45,484 nt of DNA from Polyangiales bacterium (GCA_048550275.1 JBLYYU010000210.1:1-45484); one strand, 5' to 3'. Counted from the first letter of the stretch, positions 2,505 through 40,589 are shown. The notes: a model not told the origin generated them from the sequence alone. Translations and numbers: made by a program.

Positions 2505-2517
2505 CGGGAAGCGCCGC

Positions 2518-4251: not shown

Positions 4252-5582
4252 CCACACGAGCGACCCGCACCCTGATGGTCGGCGACAAGTCACGGCGCAA
4301 GATTCGACGCTATCGCTTGAAGTCCGCAGACGGTCCCGCGCACGACTTCCAATCACAGCTCGTCCGAGCCGGCTCCCGATCCGGCAACGAGCTCGTGCTC
4401 GACGACAGCGCAGTCAGCCGAATCCACTTCGAGATTTCGGTCGATGACGTCGGCTACCGAATCCGAGATCTCGACAGCCGCAACGGGACCTGGGTGGACG
4501 GCTACCGCGTTGTCGAGATGTACCTGCCCTCTGGATGCACCATCCGAGCCGGTAGCACCGAGCTTCGATTCTCAGTCTTGGATGACGAGATCGATGTTCC
4601 GGCGACGCTCTCGGATGGTTTCGGGCCACTCGTTGGTTCGAGCCTACCAATGCGGGAGCTATACGCGGTCATCGACCGCGCGGCGCCCACCGACGTCACC
4701 GTCCTAATCGGCGGTGAAACGGGCACCGGCAAAGAGCTGGTCGCACACGCGCTACACGAGCGCAGCCCCCGTGCCGAGGGTCCTTTGGTCGTGCTCGATT
4801 GCGGCGCGGTTCCTGCAAACCTGCTCGAGAGCGAGGTCTTTGGCCACGAGAAGGGTGCATTTACCGGCGCGAACGCGCGGCGGGCGGGTTTGCTGGAAGA
4901 GGCAAACGGGGGCACCCTCTTCATCGATGAGGTCGGCGAGTTGCCGATCGAGCTACAGCCCAAGCTCTTGCGGGCGCTCGATCAACGCGAGATTCGCCGG
5001 CTCGGTGGGCGGGATACCATTGCGCTCGACTTGCGCGTGATCGCGGCAACCAACCGGGATCTTTCGGTCGAGGTGAACCGTGGAGCCTTTCGGGAGGATC
5101 TCTTCTACCGCCTGGCCGTCGTGCAATTGACGCTGCCGCCTCTTCGAGACCGGCGTGACGATGTTCGGGCGCTCGCCGAGCACTTCGTGCGAATCGCTTT
5201 CAAAGGCGACGGGCCGCGCGCGGCCGAGGTGCTGGCGGGGATCGACGAAGAGAACTGGAAGCGACTGGAGCTCCATCCGTGGCCTGGCAACGTGCGGCAG
5301 CTCCGAAACGTCATCGAGCGCACGCTGGCCCTGAGTGAGCCGTCCTCCATGGCCTTCGACCTTCCGGGTTCCGAAGCGGGGGTGCCCCGCCGTTCACCGA
5401 GTACGCCCGAGGCGGACTTGGACCGTCCGTTTGCGGAGCAAAAGCGCGACGTCATTGCAGGCTTCGAGCGCGCCTACCTCGAAGGGCTTCTGGCCCGGCA
5501 CGGTGGCAATTTCTCACGTGCGGCCGCGGCAGCCGGCATGGATCGCATGTATTTCAAGCGGCTCCTGAAGAAATACCGCTGA
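4248..5582 (+). CDS. FHA-domain sigma-54-dependent transcriptional activator (bacterial enhancer-binding protein)
   Basis: 444-aa ORF. The N-terminal FHA signature reads GSRSGNELVLDDSAVSRIHFEI...RDLDSRNGTWVDGYRV. The AAA+ core has Walker A GETGTGKE, an intact GAFTGA loop (ESEVFGHEKGAFTGA) and Walker B LFIDEVGEL. The C-terminal Fis-type HTH reads NFSRAAAAAGMDRMYFKRLLKKY. The start overlaps the kinase stop (ATGA at 4248-4251). Confidence 0.9.
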   Translation: MTTRATRTLMVGDKSRRKIRRYRLKSADGPAHDFQSQLVRAGSRSGNELVLDDSAVSRIHFEISVDDVGYRIRDLDSRNGTWVDGYRVVEMYLPSGCTIRAGSTELRFSVLDDEIDVPATLSDGFGPLVGSSLPMRELYAVIDRAAPTDVTVLIGGETGTGKELVAHALHERSPRAEGPLVVLDCGAVPANLLESEVFGHEKGAFTGANARRAGLLEEANGGTLFIDEVGELPIELQPKLLRALDQREIRRLGGRDTIALDLRVIAATNRDLSVEVNRGAFREDLFYRLAVVQLTLPPLRDRRDDVRALAEHFVRIAFKGDGPRAAEVLAGIDEENWKRLELHPWPGNVRQLRNVIERTLALSEPSSMAFDLPGSEAGVPRRSPSTPEADLDRPFAEQKRDVIAGFERAYLEGLLARHGGNFSRAAAAAGMDRMYFKRLLKKYR

Positions 5583-5642: not shown

Positions 5643-5667
5643 ACAGTGCACGAAGCACCGTGTTTTT
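5643..5667 (+). terminator. Possible intrinsic terminator after the activator gene
   Basis: The hairpin ACAGTGC-acgaa-GCACCGT has a 7-bp stem with one A/C mismatch. It is followed by G+TTTTT (5663-5667), about 60 nt after the stop at 5582. The stem is short, so the call is tentative. Confidence 0.35.
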
Positions 5668-5681
5668 CGACGCGGCAACGT

Positions 5682-5697
5682 TGGCACGCGCCGTGCA
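5682..5697 (+). promoter_or_regulatory. Sigma-54 (-24/-12) promoter
   Basis: TGGCACgcgccGTGCA compares with the consensus TGGCAC-N5-TTGCW. The GG-N10-GC spacing is exact and there is one mismatch. It lies about 14 nt upstream of an AGGAGG RBS (5710-5715) and 26 nt upstream of the ATG at 5723, directly downstream of the sigma-54 activator gene. Confidence 0.65.
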
Positions 5698-5722
5698 CAA
5701 GTCTGGGCCAGGAGGTTACTCA

Positions 5723-6802
5723 ATGCGCAAGAACACATTCACTTTCTTAGCCGCGGGCTTGTTGCTCGCATGGGGCTGCGGCGACGCCGCGGAGCCCACC
5801 GCCGAGGGAAGCGCCATCGCAGACGCGCTCGAACAGGACAACGGCGGGCTCACCATGGAGGACGAGGCGCCCGCTTTCGGCGAGCCCGAGGCATTCGATG
5901 AGATCGCCGAGTACGAGGAGGCGGACGACGAGACCGCCGACGACCCGGAGGTCGCCAGCATGCGCGATCGGCCTGACGCCGTGCAGGTCAATCTGATCGT
6001 CGAATGGGGCCAAATTCCCGGAAACCCCGAGAACGAAACACCGAGAAACTGGAGCGGCGTTTTTCACGTCAACCGTGGTGCGATGATCGTTCGCCGAGTG
6101 ATCAAATTCGAAGAGCGCACCGACCACTTGCTTCCCCGCCCCGATCGCCAGCACGTTCCATTCACATCGGTCACGCTGCCCCATCACGACGGGATGATTC
6201 TGACGATCATCGATCCAGAGCCGGAGAGCGACGAGCCACTGATCTTCTCGTATGTGAGCCCGTTGCCGCGCGACGACGAACCGCCGCGTCTCGACCCCGC
6301 GACGGACGGGGCCGACCAAGTGCCCACTCAACCGCAAACCATCGTGCGTGTGCCCGTGCGTGACCTACTCGACGGCCGCGTCGAGCTACTGATCGACGAC
6401 GCCGGAAACAGAATGGTGGCCGCCGCGATGGCTCGGCCCCTCGACGTCTGTGAGCGCGGCTTCCTCGCCGGTCGTTGGCACAAGGTCGAGGATGGCCGTG
6501 GTCGCTTCATCGGCCGCGTGGTGGGCGATGAAGGAGAGCCCGTCGGCCATATCCGAGGCATCTACGGCCGACGCGAGAACGGTGAGCAGGTCTTCTTTGG
6601 GAAGTTCATCAACCTCGAAGGTGAGTTCAAAGGCATCTTCCGCGGGGAGTACGGCGATGGCCACTTCGGCGGCCGATGGCTTCACCGCTCCGGCGAACGC
6701 GGCGTCCTCGGCGGCGTCTACCGCGAGGGTATCCCAGGTCCAAAGACCGGTGGCCACTTCGTTGGCCGCTGGGCAGAGACAAGCTGCAACCTCGATCTGT
6801 AA
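5723..6802 (+). CDS. Lipoprotein of unknown function (acidic N-terminal region, Gly-aromatic repeats at C-terminus)
   Basis: The start was moved from the track start (5660) to the ATG at 5723, which has an AGGAGG 7 nt upstream. MRKNTFTFLAAGLLLAWGCGD is a lipoprotein signal. A D/E-rich stretch (EDEAPAFGEPEAFDEIAEYEEADDETADDPE) follows. The C-terminus repeats G-x-F/Y-x-G motifs (GRFIGRV, GIYGRR, GKFINLEGEFKGIFRGEYGDGHFGGRW, GGHFVGRW). Confidence 0.7.
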   Translation: MRKNTFTFLAAGLLLAWGCGDAAEPTAEGSAIADALEQDNGGLTMEDEAPAFGEPEAFDEIAEYEEADDETADDPEVASMRDRPDAVQVNLIVEWGQIPGNPENETPRNWSGVFHVNRGAMIVRRVIKFEERTDHLLPRPDRQHVPFTSVTLPHHDGMILTIIDPEPESDEPLIFSYVSPLPRDDEPPRLDPATDGADQVPTQPQTIVRVPVRDLLDGRVELLIDDAGNRMVAAAMARPLDVCERGFLAGRWHKVEDGRGRFIGRVVGDEGEPVGHIRGIYGRRENGEQVFFGKFINLEGEFKGIFRGEYGDGHFGGRWLHRSGERGVLGGVYREGIPGPKTGGHFVGRWAETSCNLDL

Positions 6803-7042
6803 TTCAGAAGAAAGGACGAGCGGGCGGGTCGCAACTCAGCGGTCCCGCTCGCTCGCGCTCCTGGCGCTAGCCGCACGACGCGCCAGCCTTCGCGGACGTA
6901 CTGAAATCGATCGCGAAAGCGATTGGGTTGGCTCTGTTCTTTGTTGTGGGCATGCTGGGGCAAAAGCGCCCAAGAAAGCAAGCTAGAACACGTCTTTCCC
7001 GTCTAGGAAGCGCCCGTCCTCTCATGTTATCGTAGATGACTC

Positions 7043-9901
7043 GTGCATCTCCGCCCGTGGCTCCCCCTTTTGTTTCTCTTGGTCCTTGGATGCGCTGGCT
7101 GTGACCTCGGCACCAAGCTCGCGTGTAACGTCGACAGCGACTGCTTCGACGAGCTGACCTGCGTTTCAGGCGCCTGCTACAAGTGCGCCGCCGACAAGAC
7201 CGGGTGCGCGTGCGCCGACGGCAGCTGTCTCCACGGGATGGTGTGCAGTGCCGATGGCGTCTGCATGGACTGCTCGGTGACCAACCTGTGTCTCGAAGGG
7301 CTTGCCTGCGACGCCGGGCGCTGCGTGGCGTGTAGCTCGGACTTCGCGGGGTGCCCCTGTGAGGCCGGGCGGTGCGGCGAGGGCCTGGGGTGCAGCAACA
7401 GCAACCGGTGTGAGCCTTTGGCGTGCAGCGACGGAAATCGCAACGGCGATGAAAGCGACGTCGACTGCGGTGGCTCTTGCAGCCCGTGCGCAGAAAGCTT
7501 GAGCTGCCTCACGGCCACAGACTGCGAGAGCCTCGCGTGCGACGATGGAGCCTGCCTTGCCATCGGATTCTGCCTCGTCCCGACCGGCGAGTTTCCGGCG
7601 ATTCAGGCGGCTGTGGACGAGCCGCGTTGCGTCACGATCAAGCTCGGCGAAGGTACATTCGACGAACAGGTGAGCATCGACCGAGCCCTCGACCTCGTTG
7701 GCGTACCAAGCGCCGCAGGGCTCGGAGGCGGCACGACACTGTCGAGCACCAAACCCGGACCCATCATCTGGATCGGAGAAGGGGCAGGCACGGTCTACCT
7801 TCGGCACGTCGCGATACGGGACGGTGCCGCACTTCGCGGAGCCGGTGTATTTTCGAGACGAGACCTAGTCGTAGAGGACAGCCTCTTCATCGGCAATCAC
7901 GCCAGCGTCAATGCAGTTTCCGAGTACGAGGAGACTCATCCTTGCGGAGGTGCAATCTTCGTGCAGGACGCCAGTCTCACCGTGACGGACTCCAAGTTCA
8001 TCGGAAACGTCGCTGAGGAGACCAGGTTCGTCGAGCAGTCGGTGGGCGTAGCGGCCTACGGAGGGGCGATTTGCGTCTTTGGCAATGGGGAGCTCACGGT
8101 AGATTCGTCGGAGTTTCGCCGGAACATGGCGACGATCACCGCCGACATCCCAGCGGGTAGCCCTGTAGGAGCGACTGGATCCATTAGCTGGGCTTTTGGA
8201 GGTGCGATCTACCGGTCGCACGAAGACCTCATAGTCGTTCGCGACTCGATTTTTAGTGAGAACGAGACCGCGGCCTTCGTTGTGGCTCGTGCAGGCGAGG
8301 CGCGCGCGGCGTCATCCATGGGGGGAGCCATCTACCTCCTCGACTTGTCTTCGAGTTTCGACCCTTCCAAGTCCACCGTGATCGAAGGCAGCGTGTTCGT
8401 GGGCAATGTTGCCAACGCCGAAGCATCGGGTGTTGGGGCCCACGGCTCCTTTGCCTTTGCGGGTGCCGTCGGGCTGAAGGCGGCGATAGTTCGAGACACG
8501 ACGTTCGAGCACAATTGGGCTCATGCGAGACCTCCGATTAGGTCCTATGCAAGTGGCGGCGCAGCACGGCTTCGCAGCGGACGCCTAGAGGCAACACGGT
8601 TTTGGCGCAATCGCGTAGACGGAACCTACGCTGATGGCGCGGCGATCAAACTCGGCAAGGACGGTTCGATCATCAACTCGGTCTTTTGGGACAACTACGG
8701 TTCAGGCCCGGGTTCTAGCGCCATAGACATGCCAGGCGGCTGGGTCATCAACTCGACACTCTTAAACAACGGCCCCGCTCCCCAAATAAGCGGGAACGCC
8801 GAGATGAAGCATTCGGTTTTCGCCGGTGGACTGTGCGAAACGGAAAGCATCACCTCGGCTGGCTACAACGTACTTGAGCAGAGCGACTGCTTCGCCTCGC
8901 TCGCGACTGAGACCGATCGACTCGTGACGGCCCCGTTGATCGAGAACGCCTACGGGAGTTCCGCCGGCCAGCAGGCTTCATCCGTCGACAACTACGCTCA
9001 GATCTATTTGGAGCCTGGCTTTCCACTCCGCGGCAGCCCCGTCATCGATGGTGGCGATCCAGCAGGGTGTCACGACGAAGCTGGCAACTCTATTGCAGTC
9101 GACAATCGAGGTGTGGCAAGAGAAAGACCTTGCGACATCGGCGCGTTCGCGCTCGAGCCCGAGCAGCTAACCCGCGTGTCGCGCTCCACGCTCTTGCTCC
9201 GTCGGGCAACCCTTCGAAGCCCAGATCTCTACGCTCCCGGCGACGTCGACTGTACGACCCCGGTGACGGACGTCGTCATGGAGTTCATCAAAGAGGCAAT
9301 CACGGGGGACGAGTCTCGACCACCGGACCAAGCGTGCGACGGACTGATCGATTCCCCGCTCGTGTTGAGCGTCGAACGAGCTAACGACATGGCCGTCGCC
9401 TTCCTTTCGCCCACGGGGTGCGTTGCTACTCATGTTGCGTGCGAAGATCCCCTACAGGCCGTCAGCGTGGCCTCTCTGAGCGGCGGGTTCTCCTTCTATC
9501 GGATTCTCACAGAGGAGCCTTGCATCATCGGCGAAGATGCCGCGGTCGTTCCGCCGGGGGAGCACGGTTGCATCGAGGCAAAAATTAGCCGCCTTTCCTT
9601 TCACGTTGGAATCCCGTTCAACTTCCTTGATGCAGAGTTAGTCGGTCAATTCAACGTTGGACCCGAGCGTCTCACACGCGGTGTCTTGCGAGGATACGTT
9701 TCCGCTGGTAGCGCACAGGATATCGTAATCCCATACTGGCTTAGGCCCGCACTTGGCGGAGCAGACAGGCTGTTGCACCTTCTGTGCCCCGCCGATCTCG
9801 AAAGCACACCGTATCTCCCATTAGAATTCGAGGTAGAGTTCGAAGCGGTTTCTCTCTATGGGCAGGGGCTCCCCCCGATTCGTCCAGTGGGCTGCGAGTA
9901 G
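7043..9901 (+). CDS. Large Cys-rich / parallel beta-helix lipoprotein, paralogue 1
   Basis: 952-aa ORF with a GTG start. The signal plus lipobox reads LLFLLVLGCAGC. The first ~170 aa are Cys-rich modules, including ACSDGNRNGDESDVDCGGSCSPC. Repeated GGAI/FxxN-type beta-helix motifs follow (GGAIFV, GGAICVF, GGAIYRS, GGAIYLL; FIGN, FVGN, FWDN). A CDIGAFALEPE motif matches the end of choice-of-anchor-Q-type helices. An unassigned Cys-containing tail of ~240 aa completes the protein. Confidence 0.8.
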   Translation: MHLRPWLPLLFLLVLGCAGCDLGTKLACNVDSDCFDELTCVSGACYKCAADKTGCACADGSCLHGMVCSADGVCMDCSVTNLCLEGLACDAGRCVACSSDFAGCPCEAGRCGEGLGCSNSNRCEPLACSDGNRNGDESDVDCGGSCSPCAESLSCLTATDCESLACDDGACLAIGFCLVPTGEFPAIQAAVDEPRCVTIKLGEGTFDEQVSIDRALDLVGVPSAAGLGGGTTLSSTKPGPIIWIGEGAGTVYLRHVAIRDGAALRGAGVFSRRDLVVEDSLFIGNHASVNAVSEYEETHPCGGAIFVQDASLTVTDSKFIGNVAEETRFVEQSVGVAAYGGAICVFGNGELTVDSSEFRRNMATITADIPAGSPVGATGSISWAFGGAIYRSHEDLIVVRDSIFSENETAAFVVARAGEARAASSMGGAIYLLDLSSSFDPSKSTVIEGSVFVGNVANAEASGVGAHGSFAFAGAVGLKAAIVRDTTFEHNWAHARPPIRSYASGGAARLRSGRLEATRFWRNRVDGTYADGAAIKLGKDGSIINSVFWDNYGSGPGSSAIDMPGGWVINSTLLNNGPAPQISGNAEMKHSVFAGGLCETESITSAGYNVLEQSDCFASLATETDRLVTAPLIENAYGSSAGQQASSVDNYAQIYLEPGFPLRGSPVIDGGDPAGCHDEAGNSIAVDNRGVARERPCDIGAFALEPEQLTRVSRSTLLLRRATLRSPDLYAPGDVDCTTPVTDVVMEFIKEAITGDESRPPDQACDGLIDSPLVLSVERANDMAVAFLSPTGCVATHVACEDPLQAVSVASLSGGFSFYRILTEEPCIIGEDAAVVPPGEHGCIEAKISRLSFHVGIPFNFLDAELVGQFNVGPERLTRGVLRGYVSAGSAQDIVIPYWLRPALGGADRLLHLLCPADLESTPYLPLEFEVEFEAVSLYGQGLPPIRPVGCE

Positions 9902-9934
9902 CCATCGTGGTTGGAACACCCGAAGGTTCGCTTG

Positions 9935-10049
9935 CTAGCCTCCTAGCCCATCGGGATGGCGACTAGGGCCGAATTTCGCGGCACTAGATTGTTAGGTCGC
10001 GTCGGGCGTCGCGGAGAGAGGGCCTTTCTTTCGCCTATACTCACCGGGG
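9935..10049 (+). repeat. Dispersed intergenic repeat, family 1, copy A
   Basis: About 115 bp starting just after the stop of paralogue 1. The sequence CTAGCCTCCTAGCCCATCGGGATGGCGACTAGGGCCGAATTTCGCGGCACTAG...GCGTCGCGGAGAG...GCCTAT...CCGGG aligns along its length with 16953-17065. It aligns partially with 31966-32052 and 32134-32194. Confidence 0.7.
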
Positions 10050-10202
10050 ACAAGCTCAACTAGCGACCAACGGGACAGATGAAGTCGCCAACCCGGGTTG
10101 GGTCGTGGCCATGGTCGCTCCCAGGCCGTCGGAAGTGGGCTGAGGTGCCCGAAATATGCGGTGTAGATAAGGCGCGGCATCCGATGGTATCGTAGATGAC
10201 CC

Positions 10203-13088
10203 GTGTCCTCTCGCCCTTGGCTTCCCCTGTTCTCGTTCTTGCTTCTCGCATGTGCCGGATGCGAGCTGGGACCCAAGCTCGCCTGCAATGTGGACGGAGA
10301 TTGCTTCGACGGCCTGACGTGCGTGGAAGGCTTGTGCCACCAGTGCACGGCAGACCGGCCCGGCTGTGCGTGCATCGAGCGGAGCTGCCTTGGCGGCTTG
10401 GTCTGTGGCGCGGGGAGCACATGCGCGCCCTGCTCGGCGGATGTGCCCTGCACCACGGGGCTCGCGTGTGATCGAGGCCAGTGCGTCGGGTGTAGCTCGG
10501 ACTTCGCAGGCTGCCCATGCGATGCGGGGCAATGTGGAACGGGCTTGAGGTGCAACGAAGCGAACCAATGCGAAGCGCTGGCGTGCTCGGACGGCGCCCG
10601 CAACGGCGACGAGACCGATGTGGACTGCGGGGGGTCTTGCGAGCCCTGCGCGAAAGGATCGCGGTGCCTCTTCGCCACGGATTGTGAAAGCCTCGCATGC
10701 GATCAAGGAGCTTGCCTCGCCGTCGGAAGCTGCCTCGTCCCAACGAATGAGTTTCCGAAGATTCAATCCGCGGTTGACGACACGCGGTGCACCACAGTCC
10801 TGCTCGAAGAAGGCGTCTTCGACGAACGCGTCCGCGTTGACCGGCCGATCGAGATCATCGGTGTCCCGAGCATCGACTCTGTCGAAGATGGCACCGTGTT
10901 GAGGAGCATCGATTCCAGACCGACGATTGGAATTACCGAAGGAGCCGGCACGGTCTATCTTCGACACCTTTGGATCCGTGACGGCTCGGCATTCCGCGGA
11001 GCTGGCGTTCTCTCCAAACGAGACCTCGTCGTTGAACACAGCCGCTTCACCGGGAATCGCGCCAACTTGAATGCCGTGTCAGAGGAGGAGCAGCCCCACC
11101 CGTGCGGGGGCGCGATATTCGTGGAGGACGCGAATCTAACGGTTCGGGAGTCCAGCTTCGTCGAAAACCAGGCGGAGGAAACCCGGTTCGCGGTGCAGCT
11201 CATCGATGTGGAAGCGTACGGCGGGGCGATCTGCATGTTTGGCGAGGGTGAGCTTCTGGTCGAATCGTCCGAGTTTCGGCGCAATCTGGCGACGACGACG
11301 ACCGACATTCCGCCGGAGGTTCTGTATCCGAATCCATATGGTGTGGTGAGCACCGCTTCTGGAGGCGCGATATATCGGTCGGAGGAAGGCTCGAACGTCG
11401 TCCGCGACTCTACGTTCAGTGAGAACAAGGCCCGTTCTCATGTCGTCTATCATGAGGGAGAGCTTCGGAATTCAATCTCGGTCGGTGGCGCGATGGCCGT
11501 TCCCCGGCCGCGGTCCAGTGAGGACTATGCGATCGCGACTGTTATCGAACGCAGCGTCTTCGTCGAGAATGTGTCCCACGCTGACGGCGTTGCCAACATT
11601 GGAGCCTCGGCGCGGGCCGGCGCGGTCGAGCTTGGGGGAGTGTTGATTCGCGACAGTACATTCGAGCACAATCGAGCCTTTGCGAATTCCCTCTATTCCT
11701 CTCTTTGTAATGCCGGCGCAGCGTCTCTGCGTGGCGGACGCTTGGAGTCGACTCGATTTTTCCGCAACAGCGTGGAGGGCACGACCACGTTTGCGGCCGC
11801 ACTCAACGTTGGCAAACCAAGCACGATCCTAAACTCGGTCTTTTGGGACAACCGAGGAGCTTCGTCGAGTGCCGTCCAACTGGTGGGTCGGTCTGGGCGC
11901 GGCTGGCTCATCAACTCGACCCTCCTGGATAACGGACCCGGGCCCCAGCTAGCATCACAGTATGGTGAGCTCGTTCTCAAGCATACGGTCATCGCCGGTG
12001 GTCACGGGGTGTGCGACATCGATCATCTGGTCTCTGGCGGGTACAATGTGCTGGAAGAGCATGGTTGCCTCACCCCGATCGCCACCGAGACCGATCGAGT
12101 CGTGAGGGCGCCCCTGATTGAAAGGGTGTACGACCGATCCAATGCTCTGCGGACGCCAATAAGAGACGGGGTCGGCACCACGGATATTTACTCGGCCCCC
12201 GGCTTCCCCTTGATCAACAGTCCGGTGATCGACGGTGGCGATCCGAACGGATGTCACGACGAAGCCGACGAGCTCATCTCGGTCGATAGTCGGGGCGCAG
12301 AGAGAATCGGGCCGTGCGACATCGGTGCTTTCGCATTCGAGCCCGAGCAACGCACGCGGACCCCGCTGACCGCGTACCTTCTTCGACGGGTGACTTTGCG
12401 ATCTCCCGAGGTTTTCGCTCCCGGCGACGAGGGTTGCGAAATCAATGTGACTCAGCACTTCAATGCTCTCATCAACGAGTCGATGGTGGCAGACACTGCC
12501 CGTCCACCGGACCAAGAATGCGACGGGCTGATCGATTCACCGCTTGTGCTGATCCTCGAAAAAGAAGGCGACCGCTCTGGCCAGTCGCAGCTCAGACGGA
12601 CAAAGTGCGTTGCCACGCATCTCGCCTGTGAAGATCCGTGGTTTCCGCTCGTGCCGTGGCAGGGGCAAGTTGAGTACCACATTCTCGCAAACGAGCCTTG
12701 TGCGCTTGATGAGGGGCGAGCCGTCCTCGGCTCGGGGGATCACGGTTGCATAGAGGCCGGGCTCAGTAGCACGCAGTTCGATGTGGGAGTTACGTTCGAG
12801 TTCCTGAGTGCGGAGCTCATCGGTCAGATCGCCGCGCAGCCCGATCGAATTTCCAACGGCATTCTCAGAGGGTTCATGCGTGAAGGCATCGCAAGAGGCT
12901 TGCCGATTCCGAGCTTCATGCAGGCCGCCCTCGGCGGGGCGACGGCCCTGTCGGACCTTCTGTGCGGCGCCGAGCTCGAGGAATGGAGCGGACTCCCCGG
13001 CCATTTCTTCGAGTTCGGCGTGGAGTTCGAAGCAGTCACCTTGTATGGCAAAGGACTACCCCCAATTTACCCGGCTGACTGTGAGTAG
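10203..13088 (+). CDS. Large Cys-rich / parallel beta-helix lipoprotein, paralogue 2
   Basis: 961-aa ORF with a GTG start, collinear with 7043-9901 over the full length. It has the same lipobox (LLLACAGC), the same Cys spacing, ACSDGARNGDETDVDCGGSCEPC, GGAI repeats, CDIGAFAFEPE, PPDQECDGLIDSPLVL and a C-terminal LPPIYPADCE. Identity to paralogue 1 is roughly 55-60% by eye. Confidence 0.8.
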   Translation: MSSRPWLPLFSFLLLACAGCELGPKLACNVDGDCFDGLTCVEGLCHQCTADRPGCACIERSCLGGLVCGAGSTCAPCSADVPCTTGLACDRGQCVGCSSDFAGCPCDAGQCGTGLRCNEANQCEALACSDGARNGDETDVDCGGSCEPCAKGSRCLFATDCESLACDQGACLAVGSCLVPTNEFPKIQSAVDDTRCTTVLLEEGVFDERVRVDRPIEIIGVPSIDSVEDGTVLRSIDSRPTIGITEGAGTVYLRHLWIRDGSAFRGAGVLSKRDLVVEHSRFTGNRANLNAVSEEEQPHPCGGAIFVEDANLTVRESSFVENQAEETRFAVQLIDVEAYGGAICMFGEGELLVESSEFRRNLATTTTDIPPEVLYPNPYGVVSTASGGAIYRSEEGSNVVRDSTFSENKARSHVVYHEGELRNSISVGGAMAVPRPRSSEDYAIATVIERSVFVENVSHADGVANIGASARAGAVELGGVLIRDSTFEHNRAFANSLYSSLCNAGAASLRGGRLESTRFFRNSVEGTTTFAAALNVGKPSTILNSVFWDNRGASSSAVQLVGRSGRGWLINSTLLDNGPGPQLASQYGELVLKHTVIAGGHGVCDIDHLVSGGYNVLEEHGCLTPIATETDRVVRAPLIERVYDRSNALRTPIRDGVGTTDIYSAPGFPLINSPVIDGGDPNGCHDEADELISVDSRGAERIGPCDIGAFAFEPEQRTRTPLTAYLLRRVTLRSPEVFAPGDEGCEINVTQHFNALINESMVADTARPPDQECDGLIDSPLVLILEKEGDRSGQSQLRRTKCVATHLACEDPWFPLVPWQGQVEYHILANEPCALDEGRAVLGSGDHGCIEAGLSSTQFDVGVTFEFLSAELIGQIAAQPDRISNGILRGFMREGIARGLPIPSFMQAALGGATALSDLLCGAELEEWSGLPGHFFEFGVEFEAVTLYGKGLPPIYPADCE

Positions 13089-13091
13089 GTC

Positions 13092-13757
13092 GTGATCGTC
13101 TCCGTCCAACCGGATGAACGCTACCCGGGACGATCCGAGCCACTGTCCTTGCTTCAAGACAGTCGCGCCCTCCTCGACGATTTTCGAGCCGGCACCTCGG
13201 ACGCCCTCACTACGGTCTTCAACGCGTACGTCGATGACATTGCGCGCGTCGTTCGGTTCGGCTTCGCCTTGGACGACCGGTCGTATGTCTATGGGATCGC
13301 GGATTCCGAAGAACAAAAGGACATGGTTCAAGAGGTGTTCGTTCGTGCGTTCGCCGACAAGGCACGTGCGGCGTACGACGGTCTTCGCCCTTACCGCCCG
13401 TACGTGCTTCGCATTGCGAAGAACCTCATGATCGACCGCGCCCGAAAGATCGGACGGCGCCCCAAGAAAGTCGAGCCCAGCGTCGAAATCTCGATCGACG
13501 CCTTGATCGACAGGGATGCCCCGCTTCCTGAGCTCGAGGAAGATATCGACTGGAAGAACCAGAGGGCGATCGCCCGTAGCTACATTGGGTCGCTCTCGTC
13601 GGAGCTGTCCGAGCTCGTGCGGCTTCGGTTCGTCGAATGCCTCGCCCAAGCGGACGTCGCACGGGCGATGGGAATTACCCGGCGTAGGGTCCGAACCCTC
13701 GAAAAACGCGCGCTCACCGGGCTCGTGCGCCTTCTGAAACGCGAAGAGGCGATGTAA
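13092..13757 (+). CDS. ECF-type RNA polymerase sigma factor (sigma-70 family, regions 2 and 4)
   Basis: 221-aa ORF. Its GTG start lies 3 nt after the stop of paralogue 2. Region 2-like sequence reads DIARVVRFGF...QEVFVRAF...YRPYVLRIAKNLMIDRARK. The region 4 HTH reads LSELVRLRFVECLAQADVARAMGITRRRVRTLEKRALTGL. Confidence 0.85.
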   Translation: MIVSVQPDERYPGRSEPLSLLQDSRALLDDFRAGTSDALTTVFNAYVDDIARVVRFGFALDDRSYVYGIADSEEQKDMVQEVFVRAFADKARAAYDGLRPYRPYVLRIAKNLMIDRARKIGRRPKKVEPSVEISIDALIDRDAPLPELEEDIDWKNQRAIARSYIGSLSSELSELVRLRFVECLAQADVARAMGITRRRVRTLEKRALTGLVRLLKREEAM

Positions 13758-13806
13758 TGTGCCCTGAATCCGGAGACGAGCGTATGAGGCCTAGGGGCGA
13801 GCACCA

Positions 13807-14391
13807 ATGAACCAAGAAGAACGGGCGGCCAGGTTGCTTCGAGGGCAGAACACCCCTTCGGTGATCGAACGCGAACGGATGTCGAAAGAGGTTCTCGAGC
13901 GCGTTGGCGCAGGGCGTACCAAGCGTTCTCGCTTTCGAATTGGGCTGGCCGCCGCCGCAACAACCGGCGCCGTGGCTCTGCTCTTCGTCGCATTGCCCGG
14001 AGAGTTGACGCCACGCAGCGCAGGAGACGGCGCCGTTCTCGACGCACTTTGTCAGCCAGGCCCTGGCTGCCGCCAAGGAAACCGCTTGGTTCTTCGCGTG
14101 TCAAACCATGAAGGGGAACAAGGGTACATGGCGGCGTTTGCACAGCGAAGCGACGGGACGGTGATCTGGTACTTCCCCGAAGACGAGAGCAGCCGCGCGC
14201 TGCCGTTCCGCAACGGCGAGTGGATGAACCGGGCCGTGGTATTGGGCCCCGAACACGTCCCCGGCGACTACGACATACACGCGGTGCTGAGCGCGACCCC
14301 GATCGACCAGGGCACGGTGCGCTCGCTCGTCGAGCGGGGCGGCGATGATCAGCACCTCTTGCTCAACACCAAGGTCCGCGTGGCTCCATGA
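13807..14391 (+). CDS. Single-pass membrane protein, putative anti-sigma factor with DUF4384-like extracytoplasmic domain
   Basis: 194-aa ORF immediately after the ECF sigma gene. It has a short cytoplasmic N-terminus, a TM helix (IGLAAAATTGAVALLFVAL), and then LVLRVSNHEGEQGYMAAFAQRSDGTVIWYFPEDESS...GDYDIHAVLSATPI, which matches my recollection of the DUF4384 pattern. No ZAS HxxxCxxC motif is present. Confidence 0.55.
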   Translation: MNQEERAARLLRGQNTPSVIERERMSKEVLERVGAGRTKRSRFRIGLAAAATTGAVALLFVALPGELTPRSAGDGAVLDALCQPGPGCRQGNRLVLRVSNHEGEQGYMAAFAQRSDGTVIWYFPEDESSRALPFRNGEWMNRAVVLGPEHVPGDYDIHAVLSATPIDQGTVRSLVERGGDDQHLLLNTKVRVAP

Positions 14392-15968
14392 AGAGCGCGT
14401 GCTTTGCACTTGGCTTTCTCCTCATGACCGCGGTCTCATCGGAGGCTGGCGCAAAGGTGAAGCGCTACGCACTCATCGTTGGCAACAATGCCCCGCCCGC
14501 CGGCGAAGCCTTGCTCAAACCGCTCAAATACGCCGACGACGACGCCGCGCGGTACTTCGAGCTCACCCGCAGCTGGGGCGCGGAAAGCATTCTCTTGGCG
14601 GTCCTCGACTCCGCCACCCAGCGCCGTTTCCCGCAGCTGCCCATCATGGCTCGCCCGCCGACCCGCGAGAACCTGGACGACGCCCTCAACGCGCTCTCCG
14701 ACAAGGTCGCCTACGATCGGAAGCGAGGAGACGAGCCCGTGCTCTATTTCATTTTCGCCGGACACGGTTCGATACGGGACGGCTCGCCGTACTTGTCCTT
14801 GCTTGATGGCCGCATCACTCAGCAGGTCCTGTACGACGAGATCATCGCCCGAGTCTCCGCGGCGCGCACGCACCTCATCGTGGATGCGTGTCACGCAGGC
14901 GGGGTGGTCGGGTCTCGAGGTTTGTTCGATCGCGAGCTCACCGCCACCACTTCAGACGTTTCAGTCGACGAGGTGGCGGGGTTGTCGAAGCTGAGCCAGC
15001 ACCCAAACGTCGGCGTGATTTTGGCCGCCACCCTCGGGGAGGAGGTGCATGAATGGTCTCGCATCGAGTCTGGCGTGTTCTCGCACGAGGTGATCTCCGG
15101 CCTCCGTGGCCCGGCCGACGTCAATCGCGACGGCCGGATCGAGTACTCTGAAATTCAGGCCTTTGTCGCATCGGCGAATCGCGACCTCAAGGACCGAAGG
15201 ACGGCGCCGCACGTCATCGCGTACCCACCGGCCCAGGACCACCACAGCCCTCTGGCCCTGCTTTCGGAGCAAGGAGGCGTGGCCTGGCTCGAAGGCAACG
15301 CGACAAACCTCGGGCACTTCTACGTCGAACGCGAAAGCGGGGAACGCCAGTTGGACGCGCATTTCTCATCCCCGATCCCGATTCGGTTCGCCATCCCGGC
15401 AAACGAAGTCGTGTATGTGCACACCGCGACCGGAGAAGCGCAGGTCGACGCCGGCGAAGGTCAAATTCTCGAAATCTCGAAGCTCCAGTTCGAGGACAAG
15501 GAGCTGGCCGAGCGGGGAAGCGCCGAAAACGATTTCAGGGAGAGCCTTTTCGCGTCGCCCTTCAGTGAGGCGTACTACCTCGGGTTCGTCGACCACGGGC
15601 AGGTGACGCCGGTGAGCTTCGACGGCCCCGCACTGCTCTACGACGTTCCCGCGCCACCGAATCGGAAGCGGATCGCGATTGGCTTCTTCTCGACCAGTGG
15701 CGTCGCGTTCGCCGCCACTCTCGTCTCGGGAGGTATCATGGCCAAGGCCAAGCGCGACTACGACGACACCGAGATTCAGGGGGAAGCCGCCGAGGCGCAG
15801 AGCAGATTCGAGAGCGCCCGCACCGCTACGATCGTCTCGGGGAGCGTCACCGCCGTGACCGCGATCGTCGGCGCCATCGTTTGGCCGAAGAAGAAGGTTG
15901 CCCGATTCAGCGCGGAGGTCGACCCCCACAGACGACACTACGGTGTCCGAGCATCGATTCGCTTCTGA
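14388..15968 (+). CDS. Exported caspase-fold (peptidase C14 / orthocaspase-like) protein with C-terminal membrane anchors
   Basis: 526-aa ORF. An N-terminal signal peptide (MKSACFALGFLLMTAVSSEAGA) is followed by KRYALIVGNN. The catalytic dyad context is YFIFAGHGS (His126) and HLIVDACHAGG (Cys168). Two hydrophobic helices lie near the C-terminus (IAIGFFSTSGVAFAATLVSGGIM, ATIVSGSVTAVTAIVGAIVW). The start overlaps the upstream stop (ATGA at 14388-14391). Confidence 0.85.
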   Translation: MKSACFALGFLLMTAVSSEAGAKVKRYALIVGNNAPPAGEALLKPLKYADDDAARYFELTRSWGAESILLAVLDSATQRRFPQLPIMARPPTRENLDDALNALSDKVAYDRKRGDEPVLYFIFAGHGSIRDGSPYLSLLDGRITQQVLYDEIIARVSAARTHLIVDACHAGGVVGSRGLFDRELTATTSDVSVDEVAGLSKLSQHPNVGVILAATLGEEVHEWSRIESGVFSHEVISGLRGPADVNRDGRIEYSEIQAFVASANRDLKDRRTAPHVIAYPPAQDHHSPLALLSEQGGVAWLEGNATNLGHFYVERESGERQLDAHFSSPIPIRFAIPANEVVYVHTATGEAQVDAGEGQILEISKLQFEDKELAERGSAENDFRESLFASPFSEAYYLGFVDHGQVTPVSFDGPALLYDVPAPPNRKRIAIGFFSTSGVAFAATLVSGGIMAKAKRDYDDTEIQGEAAEAQSRFESARTATIVSGSVTAVTAIVGAIVWPKKKVARFSAEVDPHRRHYGVRASIRF

Positions 15969-15981
15969 AGCGCACCCGCCC

Positions 15982-16674
15982 TTAAGGAACCCACAGGTAG
16001 CCGTGGCCGCGCTCCGTTCGGCACTTGTCGAAGGACGGCTCGAGCTCGCGGAAACGCAGTCGAATGCCGCGAATGTGCGCGGCGATCGTGTTGTTTGCGA
16101 CGCAAATGCCCGCAGCTCGCATGAGCGCTTCCGCGGTCTTTGGCTGTGGTGCGTCGATCGCGAGCTCTCTCACGATGCGATAGTAGGTGAGGGAAAGCTG
16201 CACCGGCGTTTCGCGCCAGAAGGCTGCGCAGCGACGTGATTCGATGCGAAGCGAGCCTACCACGATCGCGGGACTCGGAGGTTTGGGTCGATCCAAGAGC
16301 GTGTCGTGGCGGGCAAGCAAAGTCTCCAATCGTATGCCGAGAAACCGGAGGCTCGCGTCGCGCGGGATGTGATCATCAGCCCCAGCACGAAACCCCAGAA
16401 TCCGTTCTTCCTCGCTCGTATGGGCGGTGAGGAACGCGACTGGGAGTCGCGGCCACAAGGCCCGGATATCCGAACAGAGTCGAATGCCGCCATCGCGCTC
16501 GACACCGAGCGGCACGTCGAGCAGCGCCAGGTCTGGGGGCGCCGTCGAAAACGCCCTGAAAGCCGGTACGCGTTCGCCAAAAGCCTGAACCCGATATCCC
16601 GAGGCCCGTAAGAACTCGGCGTAGTTTTCGCGGACAACCCGGTCGCCCTGCACCAGAGCAATCGTTCGTTCCAT
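15982..16674 (-). CDS. OmpR/PhoB-family response regulator (atypical receiver, no adjacent histidine kinase)
   Basis: The start was trimmed to the Met at 16674 (MERTIALVQGD...), giving 231 aa. The receiver has a phospho-acceptor context (PDLALLDVPL) and the sequence FLTAHTSEEE. The C-terminal winged helix reads VQLSLTYYRIVRELA...NTIAAHIRGIRLRF...RGHGYLW. The acidic pocket reads QGD rather than DD/DE. The conserved Lys position reads GADDHIPRD rather than GADDY-x-x-KP. Confidence 0.85.
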   Translation of the reverse strand: MERTIALVQGDRVVRENYAEFLRASGYRVQAFGERVPAFRAFSTAPPDLALLDVPLGVERDGGIRLCSDIRALWPRLPVAFLTAHTSEEERILGFRAGADDHIPRDASLRFLGIRLETLLARHDTLLDRPKPPSPAIVVGSLRIESRRCAAFWRETPVQLSLTYYRIVRELAIDAPQPKTAEALMRAAGICVANNTIAAHIRGIRLRFRELEPSFDKCRTERGHGYLWVP

Positions 16675-16952
16675 CGTCAACCTCGATACTTTGTCAAAAC
16701 GCTCACTGCCCCTCATACGCGCGACGCTGGATTCTGGTCGCGAAAAATGAAAATGAGCCAGTGGCGGTTTTCCTAGACACGCGAGCGTTCTGTGCCGCGC
16801 CACTCGCGGGTCGTGCCGCCCTCGGTGAGGTTGTCGGTCAAGCGTCAACGTGGGCCGTTGTCGCGCGAATCCTTGTTTGGATAGGTTCGCCCGACTTTGT
16901 GATCAACGACGGGTTGGGGTGCCATCGCTGATTAGAGATCCGCCCATGAAGA

Positions 16953-17065
16953 CTAGCCTCTCAGCCCATCGGGATAACGACTAGCGCCGAATTGCGCGGC
17001 ACCAGGTTTTGTGTCGTGTGGGGCGTCGCGGAGAGGGGCGTTGACTTGCCTATCTGCATCCCGGG
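16953..17065 (+). repeat. Dispersed intergenic repeat, family 1, copy B
   Basis: CTAGCCTCTCAGCCCATCGGGATAACGACTAGCGCCGAATTGCGCGGCACCAG...GCGTCGCGGAGAGG...GCCTAT...CCGGG is collinear with copy A (9935-10049). It sits in the divergent intergenic region between the response regulator and the 17240 gene. Confidence 0.7.
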
Positions 17066-17094
17066 TCGGATCTCGCTCAGCGGGTCGGCGAGCT

Positions 17095-17149
17095 TTCATC
17101 TTGCTTCACGATGATTCATCAAGATTCACGCCAACTCACACTAATTCAC
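17095..17149 (+). promoter_or_regulatory. Array of six 10-bp-phased TTCAY pentamers (candidate winged-helix response-regulator binding array)
   Basis: TTCAT(17095) TTCAC(17105) TTCAT(17115) TTCAC(17125) CTCAC(17135) TTCAC(17145) are spaced at exactly 10 bp. Four of the six are preceded by A (ATTCA / ACTCA). The array ends 90 bp upstream of the ATG at 17240, which has a GGAGG 6 nt upstream. The protein partner is inferred, not shown. Confidence 0.6.
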
Positions 17150-17239
17150 AACCACCTAGGGCAACCTTCCAAGTCTAGCGGCGGACCGTCGCAGTTCTGA
17201 ACCGAACTTGGCGTTCGTGTCTAAACCCGGAGGTGAGCG

Positions 17240-19171
17240 ATGTCTGATGAGAGCAGCACGAGAAGAGCGAAGAAAGCCCAAGGCGGCCGTTTTGGGAAAT
17301 GCACAGTTGGCTCCTTCTTGCCGCTGATCCTTGCAGGGGCGTACTTCAGTATGGGTCCGTCAGATTGCGGTGGGGATATCGAGGGAGATGTCACGCCAGA
17401 GAATCTGAAGCTCTACACCGAACTCGCCTCGATCGAGATTCCGATTCTCAAAAGCGAGAGCTGGGACGGCGGTACAGAAGAGCCGTATTTCATTGGGTTC
17501 GAGTGGTGGGCCACCTCCAAGAACGCCGAAACCAATCAAAACGGAAACTCGAACGTGAAGATCCTCAACCGGTTCCCAGGCAGCGATGACCTGCCGTCAC
17601 AGGCGGTTCGACGCCAGATGGTCGAGGGATCGCAGGTTTTGTTGCCTGAGACGTTCAGCCGAACCTGGGGCCTCTTCGACGAACAGGTTCTTCCAAAAAC
17701 ATTGGAAGACGCCGAGAATAGTCACGTCAAAATCTCTGGGATCACGATCTGTGCGTTTGAAGATGACACGGACGGTGATTCCCCGTTCGTCTACAATCGC
17801 GTCTACGAATACGCGCAAAGCGCGCAAGGCGATTTTAAGAAGGATCTCGAAGCGTTCACGCAGAGAACGATCTCCGACCCCTACATTGCCGAGAAGGCGA
17901 ACGTTGTCGGCATCATCACCTCGGTTCTGGGAATCGCGGTCGACCTCGTTCCAAAGCTCATCGCGCTGTTCAAGAAGGACCCGCCAACTCCAGACGACTT
18001 CGCTGGGTGTGCTTCTTTCGCCTATGTCGGCGTGCCACACTCGGTGCTCGACGATATCCCGGGACCGAAGCCGCCCTGCTACTCGTCTTCCCGAAACCTC
18101 TTGTGCCCGATCGACGCACGACCGGAGGACATTCCCTATCTAGAGGAACAGCGTCGCGACGACGGAGTGCCCCCTCAGCTACGATTCGTGGTCCTAGGGG
18201 ACGAAGACCCCGGCCCCTCGAGCGAAGGACTCGATATACGGCTAAACCGTACCTGGCTTGCCGACGTCGAACTCCGCACAGGCCTCTACCGAACGTCGCG
18301 CTCGGCACACGAGACGTACACCGTGGCTGCCGGTGCGACCGCCGGTGACCTTTGGATTCCAGCTCCGACACACCAGCGACTCGTTACTTCCGGCCAGCGA
18401 GTTCTTCGGTTTGCCCACGTGGTGGACTACCAAACGCTCTGGACGCCGCTCTTGAATTTTGACATTCGCCCGTCCGGCTCGGGCTTTCTGCTCGACGTGG
18501 TCGCCGGCTTGCCCGTGTCCAGTGTGTCCGTCCGAGTGTCCACCGTCACGCTCCCGCAGGAAGTCGAAGTACATCGGGAGACTGCAACAATTTCGTCCGG
18601 AGAGACCTTCACATTCTGGTATCCCGAGGCTTATCAACCCAGCGATCGTTACGTTGTCATCCCGGAAATCCTCTCCCTTCAGCAGGGACTCGGTCGCTTC
18701 GAGTTCGAGGTCGAATCATATCCAGATCGAGCCGAGGTTCGGCTTCAGGGCTACCAATTTCCCCATACGCTTCCGGTCAATTGGCCTGGTACTGATGGGC
18801 CTGACGTCCAGATGACTGTGCGAATGACGTGGATCAGTGGAACCGATCCCGATTTGCGGGCGCCGATGAACGTCAAGCGATTGCACGTGACTTCCAATCA
18901 AGAGGTCAACAACGGTGCCGCCGATCCAGAGGAGCGCACATTGAACGATTGGAACGCGAGCCAAGCAGACGGTGCGAACCTTTATTTCCTGGACGCTTTT
19001 GACTCGGACCTGTCTCACAATAGCGGCTGGCATGTGCGCGCGGTCGGCGCCGAGTTCTTGGAGTACGACACGGGAACGGCCCGCTTGTTGGTTCAAGACA
19101 CCTACGACTTCGAGGGCGGTTCGGCCGCGTGGGCCCGCGGAAAGCTCGTGAATATCTCGTTCATGGAATAG
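17240..19171 (+). CDS. Hypothetical exported protein, no recognisable family (ORFan)
   Basis: 643-aa ORF with a good RBS (GGAGGtgagcgATG). The basic N-terminus is followed by a hydrophobic segment (SFLPLILAGAYFSMG) and there is one internal hydrophobic/amphipathic stretch (VVGIITSVLGIAVDLVPKLIALF). G+C is visibly lower, and the composition richer in N/K/E/S/T, than in neighbouring genes. I could not match any catalytic motif. Confidence 0.7.
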   Translation: MSDESSTRRAKKAQGGRFGKCTVGSFLPLILAGAYFSMGPSDCGGDIEGDVTPENLKLYTELASIEIPILKSESWDGGTEEPYFIGFEWWATSKNAETNQNGNSNVKILNRFPGSDDLPSQAVRRQMVEGSQVLLPETFSRTWGLFDEQVLPKTLEDAENSHVKISGITICAFEDDTDGDSPFVYNRVYEYAQSAQGDFKKDLEAFTQRTISDPYIAEKANVVGIITSVLGIAVDLVPKLIALFKKDPPTPDDFAGCASFAYVGVPHSVLDDIPGPKPPCYSSSRNLLCPIDARPEDIPYLEEQRRDDGVPPQLRFVVLGDEDPGPSSEGLDIRLNRTWLADVELRTGLYRTSRSAHETYTVAAGATAGDLWIPAPTHQRLVTSGQRVLRFAHVVDYQTLWTPLLNFDIRPSGSGFLLDVVAGLPVSSVSVRVSTVTLPQEVEVHRETATISSGETFTFWYPEAYQPSDRYVVIPEILSLQQGLGRFEFEVESYPDRAEVRLQGYQFPHTLPVNWPGTDGPDVQMTVRMTWISGTDPDLRAPMNVKRLHVTSNQEVNNGAADPEERTLNDWNASQADGANLYFLDAFDSDLSHNSGWHVRAVGAEFLEYDTGTARLLVQDTYDFEGGSAAWARGKLVNISFME

Positions 19172-34031: not shown

Positions 34032-34185
34032 AGGCGGATTGAACGTCCTGGCGACTGTTCTTGTCAAGCGCGGCTGGTCCTGGTCTCTAGTCGCGAAGCA
34101 CGTCGGGACTAGGCCACCGCCGCAAACAAAGATCCAACCAAGGCCCGCGAATCGGCCGGAGGTGCCGTGGATGTAGCCCGCGCGG

Positions 34186-40452: not shown

Positions 40453-40589
40453 GGGTGTAAAGGGTACCACACTTAGCCCTAGCGCACGGCGTCGGGGTGT
40501 CGCCGCCAAAGGTCGGTTTTTCGAGGCGTCGCTGAGACTCTCTGAACGACGCCCGCGCTACCGCTGCACCTCAAACGCCCCAAAGTCGC

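Follow-up and report, generated by a model that had tools for sequence, protein, structure and literature searches.

The DNA stretch analysed here, called the window throughout, comprises 45,484 nucleotides (nt) from a Polyangiales bacterium (GCA_048550275.1 JBLYYU010000210.1:1-45484). At positions 13092-15968 of its plus strand it carries three tightly packed genes, which encode a sigma factor of the extracytoplasmic function (ECF) type, a single-pass membrane protein presumed to be its anti-sigma factor, and an exported caspase-fold protein of the Peptidase_C14 family; the latter might act as the protease that triggers release of the sigma factor. The open reading frame (ORF) of the sigma factor (13092..13757) is opened by an in-frame GTG 3 nt past the TAG (13086-13088) of the second of two beta-helix paralogues, and from this GTG it encodes 221 amino acids (aa). 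In an alignment of 24 sigma factors of the family the usual start lies approximately 18-20 codons inside the GTG-initiated ORF, and the true start may be an alternative one, TTG at 13149, which would give a protein of 202 aa and place the gene 60 nt behind the stop of paralogue 2; with either start, no space is left for a separate promoter after paralogue 2. No terminator-like site was found between these two genes, a scan of 6700-17300 for sigma-70 promoters and terminators gave nothing above shuffled sequences, and matches to the sigma-54 promoter pattern in the window were at chance level. The middle ORF (13807..14391, 194 aa) ends in a TGA that shares the tetranucleotide ATGA with the ATG of the protease ORF (14388..15968, 526 aa). 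Gene order and both junctions are as described in the initial annotation, an earlier reading of the same sequence, and the three-gene layout is confirmed. Since conserved homologues exist for all five genes (the trio and the beta-helix pair), these ORFs are real genes and not chance.

The first product matches Sigma70_r2 (28.4 bits, cut-off 24), Sigma70_r4 (35.9, cut-off 24.1) and TIGR02937 (63.3, cut-off 42.9). In a protein of 202-221 aa the matches are confined to regions r2 and r4, with no other sigma regions, which identifies it as an ECF (group 4) sigma factor. Compared with the NCBIfam equivalogs, every score was far under the cut-off. The main text of the paper on ECF classification (PMC7826278) mentions neither caspases nor C14 peptidases.

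The third product matches Peptidase_C14 (PF00656) with 38.0 bits against a cut-off of 21.4, so that this profile, like Sigma70_r2 and Sigma70_r4, bears out the gene identities proposed earlier. It has more than 472 full-length homologues of approximately 520-540 aa, and all the named ones are from Myxococcota. Its caspase-fold catalytic domain (aa 24-280, 14457..15227) contains the motifs FAGHG and DACHAGG, whose dyad residues His126 (14763-14765) and Cys168 (14889-14891) are invariant in 34 of 34 sequences, as are Asp50-52, Asp166 and Arg177. GSU0716, MALT1, legumains and caspases headed the Foldseek matches of the predicted structure; probability 1.0 was reached by 3bij and by the last three. 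A profile search of PDB sequences matched two regions only: the surroundings of the dyad (metacaspase-9 and GSU0716, E ~0.005), where His126 and Cys168 align with the dyads of both proteins, and a calcium loop of EF-hand type. Profile, caspase-hemoglobinase fold and His-Cys dyad together place the protein in Peptidase_C14. The calcium loop, D244-V-N-R-D-G-R-I-E-Y-S-E255 (15117..15152), lies inside the catalytic domain and is a canonical 12-residue loop (DxNxDxxIEYxE), in which D244, N246, D248, E252 and E255 are invariant in 34 homologues; it matches the EF-hand of Entamoeba CaBP1 in the PDB search, and the match to Pfam EF-hand_5 is weak. This insert suggests that the protease is under calcium control. 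Two other assignments were tried and rejected: membership of the NCBIfam family 'caspase, EACC1-associated type' (20 bits, cut-off 140), and a role in anti-phage defence, for which PADLOC gave a weak generic caspase match of 22.8 bits and no defence genes in the window.

Export of the protease is predicted from its N-terminus, a Sec-type signal peptide (aa 1-20, 14388..14447) formed by MK, a hydrophobic core and the residues SEA, with the predicted cut between SEA and the following G; the family keeps a basic residue, the core and a small-x-small motif just before strand beta-1. The catalytic domain is followed by a beta-sandwich domain (aa 298-370, 15279..15497), defined by strands of the AlphaFold2 model with a predicted local distance difference test (pLDDT) score of ~90, and by a C-terminal helical hairpin (aa 424-498, 15657..15881), which consists of two hydrophobic segments and a conserved polar loop and is supported by hydropathy and by AlphaFold2. 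For the two helices the 19-residue Kyte-Doolittle maxima reach 1.69 and 1.96, against family medians of 1.86 and 1.73; in the model, which has a pLDDT of 81 for the whole protease, the helices span residues 424-460 and 464-498. The family-wide Sec features and this hairpin, both read by sequence rules, predict a catalytic domain in the periplasm with the hairpin as its anchor. As a side observation, the C-terminal tail of the protease (15882-15965) has an alternating hydrophobic pattern and ends in W or F in 32 of 34 homologues, which is reminiscent of an outer-membrane beta-signal or strand-addition motif.

The middle protein (13807..14391, plus strand) is formed by a short cytoplasmic head, a group of basic residues, one transmembrane (TM) helix, a disordered linker and an immunoglobulin-like (Ig-like) ectodomain. 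Its sole hydrophobic segment (approximately aa 43-65, 13933..14001; Kyte-Doolittle maximum 2.17) is preceded by RTKRSRFR, whose five basic residues place the N-terminus inside in accordance with the positive-inside rule. The initial annotation had proposed this single-pass topology with a short cytoplasmic head, had given the protease a cleavable signal peptide, a His/Cys dyad and two C-terminal TM helices, and had put the caspase domain and the ectodomain in one compartment. The conserved Sec features, the dyad found in all 34 sequences, the hairpin seen by hydropathy and by AlphaFold2, and the basic residues ahead of the only hydrophobic segment agree with each of these points: the catalytic domain and the anti-sigma ectodomain are predicted to share the periplasm, and a cytoplasmic caspase domain, which would have spoken against the proposal, is contrary to the export predicted from the family-conserved signal peptide.

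Word-indexed searches with the middle protein returned 11 and 17 matches only, and it therefore took an exhaustive profile search to see its family of 2316 clusters (50% identity), of which 309 reach E<=1e-30; almost all have ~200 aa. The cytoplasmic head carries the motif RLLxG(R)xxxSxxE(K/R)Exxxxxx(V/L) (aa 7-34, 13825..13908), which in the family reads RLLSGRxxLSxxEKE within a cytoplasmic part of ~40 residues. R9, L10 and L11 are kept in at least 90% of 150 homologues, which have no more than ~50% identity to each other, and the AlphaFold2 model shows two short helices, 3-11 and 19-34. The motif resembles 'LLDGELT..', helix 1-2 of a zinc-binding anti-sigma (ZAS) head found in the variant locus L087, and this is all that the window protein retains of a ZAS head. 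The window protein and typical members of its family lack the zinc motif HxxxCxxC (zf-HC2, PF13490), which is present in the variant homologues P0143 of L087 (28.7 bits), P0141 and P0139 of L086 (HLSACAAC). The head is a candidate minimal sigma-binding domain. The sigma-adjacent gene and the single-pass, N-in topology of the middle protein are those of a membrane anti-sigma factor, and its identification as an anti-sigma factor is supported by homology through the ZAS-head variant cassettes described below.

The periplasmic ectodomain (aa 74-194, 14026..14388) is modelled as an Ig-like beta-sandwich with pLDDT >90 across residues 77-194; in the 150 homologues Cys82 is invariant and Cys88 is conserved in at least 90%. 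In a fold search of the PDB the model found generic Ig-like matches only, all with E >=0.008, and hhalign detected no relation between this ectodomain and the beta-sandwich plus catalytic domain of the protease. The initial annotation had called the outer domain DUF4384-like. The window protein itself has no Pfam match at E<=0.1 and none to DUF4384 (PF14326) even at E<=10. Sub-threshold DUF4384 matches occur in relatives, in 5 of 30 (best E 3e-4) and in 2 of 150 (E<=0.01), and a bridging protein, P0140, reaches 22.8 bits (gathering score 27) over profile positions 2-80 of 81, on the same region that matches the anti-sigma family profile. What stands of the earlier designation is a remote similarity of the ectodomain family to DUF4384, which stays short of membership.

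To examine the conservation of the module, its genes were located through family profiles and envelope coordinates in non-redundant loci that included sufficient DNA upstream. With each species represented by a single genome, the scan gave 283 relatives of the protease, all from Myxococcota (Kofleriaceae, Polyangia, Nannocystales, Bradymonadia, Archangium and Vitiosangium) and often present in two to four copies per genome; Vitiosangium sp. GDMCC 1.1324 (locus L083) is a carrier that can be cultivated. In 69 of 72 loci (96%) the gene directly upstream of the protease gene encodes an anti-sigma homologue, and in 62 of 74 the stop codon of the former and the start codon of the latter overlap by 4 nt. 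A sigma gene of the family is found upstream in 63 of 68 loci, adjacent in 55 and 0.7-1.8 kb away in 8. This order is kept across Myxococcota families at 33-64% protein identity, so the caspase neighbour on whose conservation the earlier proposal depended is strongly conserved. Three variant cassettes extend the picture. In L087, a sigma factor that matches the family profile weakly (56.8 bits) is followed by a zf-HC2-head protein, whose ectodomain scores 48.9 bits to the anti-sigma family profile and whose linker contains FTARG, and then by a protease homologue (291 bits); in L086 the family sigma factor is kept (203.9 bits), with a ZAS motif (HLSACAAC) placed before the family head; and in L046 the sigma factor hardly matches (13.6 bits), the head is zf-HC2-like, and ectodomain and protease are again the same. 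A change of sigma factor or anti-sigma head therefore leaves the pairing of ectodomain and protease intact. No conserved gene was found downstream of the protease, the biggest cluster being of 5 loci.

The linker between the TM helix and the ectodomain contains the motif L-T-P-R70-S (14005..14019), a candidate site-1 cleavage site. In the family, the motif [F/L]-x-[A/S/P]-[R/K]-G stands out from an otherwise variable linker at a median of 11 residues past the TM helix. In the sample of 150 homologues, position 70 is Arg in 124 and Lys in 26, and so is basic in 100%, and position 71 is Gly in 148. The linker has pLDDT <50 in the AlphaFold2 model, and the motif is retained in the variant proteins with ZAS heads, as the FTARG of L087 shows. 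An exchange of Arg and Lys under strict conservation of charge, in a disordered segment, is the look expected of a P1 residue for an enzyme of metacaspase type, and cleavage at this place is plausible. The predicted specificity of the protease points the same way. Metacaspases and orthocaspases prefer basic P1 residues, a preference determined by S1 residues that in TbMCA2 are Asp95 and Asp211 (PMC4357240, PMC6426788). Asp166 of the protease lies two residues ahead of Cys168, which is the Asp211-Cys213 spacing of TbMCA2, and Asp50-52 open helix 49-62; by positional inference these residues correspond to the metacaspase S1 residues, so that specificity for Arg/Lys is predicted. The protease itself contains an invariant [V/S/A]-Arg177-Gly motif 9 residues past Cys168, at the start of a variable low-confidence loop (179-192). 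This is the place of the intersubunit linker in caspases and the motif is like that of the anti-sigma linker, which makes it a plausible site of autoprocessing.

A mechanism that would join these features can be outlined. The ECF sigma factor would be held at the inner membrane by the short cytoplasmic head of the anti-sigma factor, while the periplasm would contain the ectodomain of the latter, a sandwich with a disulfide, and the hairpin-anchored catalytic domain of the protease. A signal, possibly calcium at the EF-hand loop or a ligand on either beta-sandwich, would lead the protease, with its metacaspase-type basic specificity, to cut after the Arg or Lys of [F/L]-x-[A/S/P]-[R/K]-G (Arg70 in the window protein). 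With the ectodomain lost, a site-2 protease of RseP type and cytoplasmic proteases would free the sigma factor, whose regulon may extend to the Cys-rich exported proteins encoded alongside, for example the beta-helix pair. That the protease cuts the anti-sigma linker as the site-1 trigger of sigma release is, in our judgement, evenly poised between right and wrong. The fuller statement, that a calcium-gated, operon-encoded and membrane-anchored periplasmic metacaspase is the site-1 protease for a large undescribed family of Myxococcota ECF/anti-sigma pairs and cuts between [R/K] and G, is more tentative and falls slightly short of that balance. A caspase-like trigger had been proposed in the initial annotation; synteny, predicted export, the ZAS-head variants, the basic linker residue and the putative S1 aspartates have since come to its side, and the cleavage itself has got no further than plausible.

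The genes next to the module bear on these proposals. Upstream of the sigma gene, on the same strand, lie beta-helix paralogue 1 (7043..9901) and paralogue 2 (10203..13088), which are 56% identical and each combine a Cys-rich module at the N-terminus with beta-helix/PMP repeats and a choice-of-anchor-Q domain (matches to Beta_helix, Chlam_PMP and choice_anchor_Q in both); from a lipobox-like L-x-[GA]-C, both are probable lipoproteins. A 92%-identical relative (L090) has one beta-helix copy, joined to the sigma gene across 3 nt as in the window, a 63% relative has a beta-helix gene downstream of the protease and a 64% relative has none; a full-length beta-helix homologue is absent from all other loci compared. 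Genes for Cys-rich (Dickkopf_N-like) exported proteins are found inside or beside the cassette in ~24 loci, approximately one-third, and are rare elsewhere in the flanks; their C-terminal domains vary (beta-helix, Kelch propeller or Dickkopf-like). In five of the eight loci with a gap between sigma and anti-sigma genes, the gap is occupied by one Cys-rich exported family, which forms a four-gene cassette (L034 6285-7247, L039 1056-2030, L051, L058 1836-2762 and L061), and the gap of L047 holds a gene that shares the Cys-rich module of paralogues 1 and 2. Genes related to this insert also follow immediately downstream of the protease gene in L004, L007, L011, L016, L021 and others. Such Cys-rich neighbours may be a regulated output or a co-sensor. 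The earlier suggestion that the beta-helix pair is the cargo of the system gains from the Cys-rich exported neighbours in about one-third of the loci and loses from the pair itself being adjacent only in close relatives and in varying positions.

The two beta-helix genes also share a near-identical element of ~40 nt, at 7002-7040 and 10162-10200, directly before the GTG of each paralogue; it is present in L090 too, at ~3373-3411. Its layout is T[C/G]TAG(A)[T/G]AAG, ~21 nt, TATCGTAGATGAC, 2 nt and GTG, and it is near-identical although the beta-helix proteins are only 56% identical. Its 13-mer has no further occurrence within 1.25 Mb of related loci. The element could be a promoter (TAGATA-N18-TATCGT) that gives a near-leaderless mRNA, or another regulatory site.

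Other explanations of the module have to be weighed with the proposed cleavage. The protease could be an output or partner enzyme and not the trigger: the sigma pair would then sense an envelope cue through a conventional site-1 protease or a conformational change, and the protease would process other periplasmic substrates, for example the Cys-rich proteins, which here are the beta-helix lipoproteins. ECF operons often encode their own effectors, and this explanation would account both for the Cys-rich genes at or inside the cassette in ~24 loci and for the gapless junction between sigma and beta-helix genes in the window and L090. On the other hand, approximately two-thirds of the loci have no Cys-rich neighbour and no downstream gene is widely conserved, whereas the anti-sigma and protease genes are adjacent in 96%, usually with the 4-nt overlap. 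Moreover, the pairing of ectodomain and protease survives swaps of the sigma factor and the head, and the strictly basic linker residue suits the specificity predicted for the protease; on balance we hold an output enzyme to be unlikely, if by no means negligible. The same tight co-inheritance and translational coupling of anti-sigma and protease genes could instead mean that the ectodomain is not cut by the protease but regulates it, as an inhibitor or docking subunit, or acts with it as a co-sensor. The state of the protease, occupied by its real substrates or by calcium, would then be passed on to the sigma factor through a conformational change or through unmasking for a different protease. 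RseB and outer-membrane-protein peptides, which gate the cleavage of RseA, provide an analogue. Inhibitors of proteases with a beta-sandwich fold exist, and the intracellular proteinase inhibitor of B. subtilis (3isy) is among the weak fold matches of the ectodomain (E 0.012); in addition, DUF4384 is often fused to proteases (bioRxiv 10.1101/2022.08.17.504292; PMC7475262). The fold matches are, though, generic Ig-like ones with no specific similarity, and a regulatory ectodomain leaves the invariantly basic linker residue and its Gly unexplained, so that we consider it distinctly improbable. An ordinary ECF pair that happens to stand beside an unrelated exported peptidase could be set aside only by looking beyond the window; the synteny, the several paralogous copies per genome and the overlapping codons contradict such a meaningless adjacency, to which hardly any credence can be given.

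Several observations weigh against cleavage of the linker by the protease as the trigger of sigma release. The module is known here entirely from genes, sequence comparison and predicted structures. Three loci (L067, L076 and L085) have a protease with no anti-sigma gene upstream, and five cassettes (L033, L037, L041, L046 and L060) have no sigma gene of the family. The head has just ~40 residues and no Pfam anti-sigma domain is detectable in the window protein; since the head is so short and lacks such a domain, its binding to the sigma factor is an assumption. Asp50-52 corresponds to TbMCA2 Asp95 by position and not by residue-level superposition, and the conserved Arg/Lys-Gly lies at the edge of a folded domain and could be structural. 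For those ORFs of the window that have 200 aa or more, the comparison with Pfam gave no RseP-like gene, the search for a site-2 protease having been confined to the window. Finally, an autoregulatory promoter was sought upstream of 65 sigma genes of the family, by dyad enumeration and 5-mer enrichment, and nothing above shuffles or generic AT-richness was obtained.

No paper describing the present module was found. The statement in the initial annotation that no characterised example was known has nevertheless to be revised, as precedents exist in DdvA (PMC11506125), in Craspase (bioRxiv 10.1101/2022.08.17.504292) and in the CHAT neighbours of ECF54 (PMC8999054). In the DdvS/DdvA system of M. 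xanthus, the proposal is that a transmembrane anti-sigma factor with a periplasmic TPR-CHAT part cleaves its own linker in trans, ahead of the action of RseP (PMC11506125, PMC6061681). The system comes from the same phylum as the present module and likewise combines an ECF sigma factor, a single-pass anti-sigma factor and a periplasmic caspase-fold domain with a His-Cys dyad; in both systems the first cut is proposed to lie in a flexible juxtamembrane linker, and in both the cleavage is a proposal. In DdvA, the CHAT domain stands behind TPRs, is fused to the anti-sigma factor and is proposed to cut in trans within a dimer, whereas here, where no TPR or CHAT match was found, the protease is a separate C14 protein with its own anchor, an EF-hand loop and a beta-sandwich. 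The anti-sigma factor also differs, with its small Ig-like ectodomain and a truncated head that lacks the zinc motif, and DdvA controls a CBASS/CRISPR island, whereas the window has no defence genes. In Craspase, a type III-E CRISPR system, the caspase-like Csx29 cleaves Csx30, a binder of the ECF sigma factor RpoE (bioRxiv 10.1101/2022.08.17.504292; PMC10028731), and the C-terminal domain of Csx30 is DUF4384 in some groups (bioRxiv 10.1101/2022.08.17.504292). Common to both would be a caspase-fold protease that cuts a flexible linker in a sigma-binding protein, as proposed here, and a domain that is DUF4384 or remotely like it. Craspase is cytoplasmic, guided by RNA (Cas7-11) and of TPR-CHAT type, and it cuts after Met or Leu; the present module, by contrast, is predicted to be extracytoplasmic and membrane-bound, with a metacaspase-like protease that carries a signal peptide and is predicted to cut after Arg or Lys, and neither CRISPR genes nor cas-like families are found in the window. 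In the case of ECF54, the conserved neighbours are a carboxypeptidase, a subtilase and CHAT proteins, and a proteolytic control is proposed; that group is described without an anti-sigma factor (PMC8999054, section 3.3). The likeness is an ECF sigma factor in a conserved protease neighbourhood, and the differences are that an anti-sigma factor is present here and that the neighbour is a C14 peptidase. In relation to all these precedents, what differs is a separate, anchored C14 protease with an EF-hand, a minimal zinc-free head, the extracytoplasmic setting and the lack of any linkage to defence.

Classical regulated intramembrane proteolysis offers a further comparison. Its cases include RseA with DegS and RseP, RsiW with PrsW, and RsiV with signal peptidase, and the classical site-1 enzymes are serine proteases or metalloproteases that are usually not encoded in the sigma operon. 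The present proposal follows the same logic, in that a periplasmic site-1 cut, predicted ~11 residues past the membrane, would shorten the anti-sigma factor and ready it for a site-2 protease. It departs from it in the candidate enzyme, which belongs to the clan CD cysteine proteases and whose gene lies in the operon, in translational coupling with that of the presumed substrate. With the orthocaspases and metacaspases (Peptidase_C14B; TbMCA2, AtMC9, cyanobacterial orthocaspases, GSU0716) the protease shares the His-Cys dyad, the motif D-x-C-H-x-G, acidic residues at the putative S1 positions and a likely dependence on calcium, and DUF4384 is an accessory domain of orthocaspases (PMC7475262). 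It is set apart from them by very low sequence similarity (E ~0.005, dyad surroundings only), by a calcium site that is a canonical EF-hand insert and not the Asp cluster of metacaspases, and by being exported, membrane-anchored and tied to a sigma/anti-sigma pair.

The proposal matters for two fields. To our knowledge, bacterial caspase homologues are abundant and almost none has a known physiological substrate, and the trigger is unknown for most groups of the ECF sigma factors, a major signalling system. The module provides a testable enzyme-substrate pair with a predicted site, a predicted cofactor (calcium) and hundreds of natural variants, some with swapped sigma factors or anti-sigma heads. 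If the proposed cleavage is real, caspase-fold proteases of clan CD would act as stand-alone periplasmic site-1 triggers of sigma signalling; DdvA (fused), Craspase (cytoplasmic) and the present module would be forms of one theme, a caspase-fold protease that cuts a sigma-binding protein; a function would be given to a so far unannotated family of proteins that numbers more than 2000 clusters (50% identity); and the DUF4384-like domain would be a module recognised by caspases and shared with Csx30 of Craspase.

Further genes of the window are recorded for completeness. Positions 37-5582 (plus strand) hold a co-directional upstream series of genes, for an unknown protein of 528 aa, a protein with a PEGA domain, a Ser/Thr kinase and a sigma-54 activator with an FHA domain; FHA sigma-54 activators are also found near the cassette in L004, L008, L054 and L055. 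A response regulator gene (15982-16848, minus strand) is convergent to the protease gene and has the same position in L090; its best NCBIfam match, 'proteobacterial dedicated sortase system response regulator', has 183.8 bits, below the cut-off of 335.7. For the products of two plus-strand genes, at 5660-6802 (380 aa) and 17240-19171 (643 aa), neither Pfam nor NCBIfam nor PADLOC gave a match and the loci compared contained no homologue, and homologues of these two proteins and of an LVIVD protein were not found near other cassettes. Further downstream lie a gene for a protein with a pretoxin-HINT/Hint domain, possibly a polymorphic toxin (32679-34406, minus strand), one for a protein with Cys-rich repeats of Dictyostelium type (35137-35904, plus strand), and one for a protein (39802-40509, minus strand; 162 bits) that resembles the ERG2/sigma-1 receptor family, which is typical of eukaryotic sterol metabolism.

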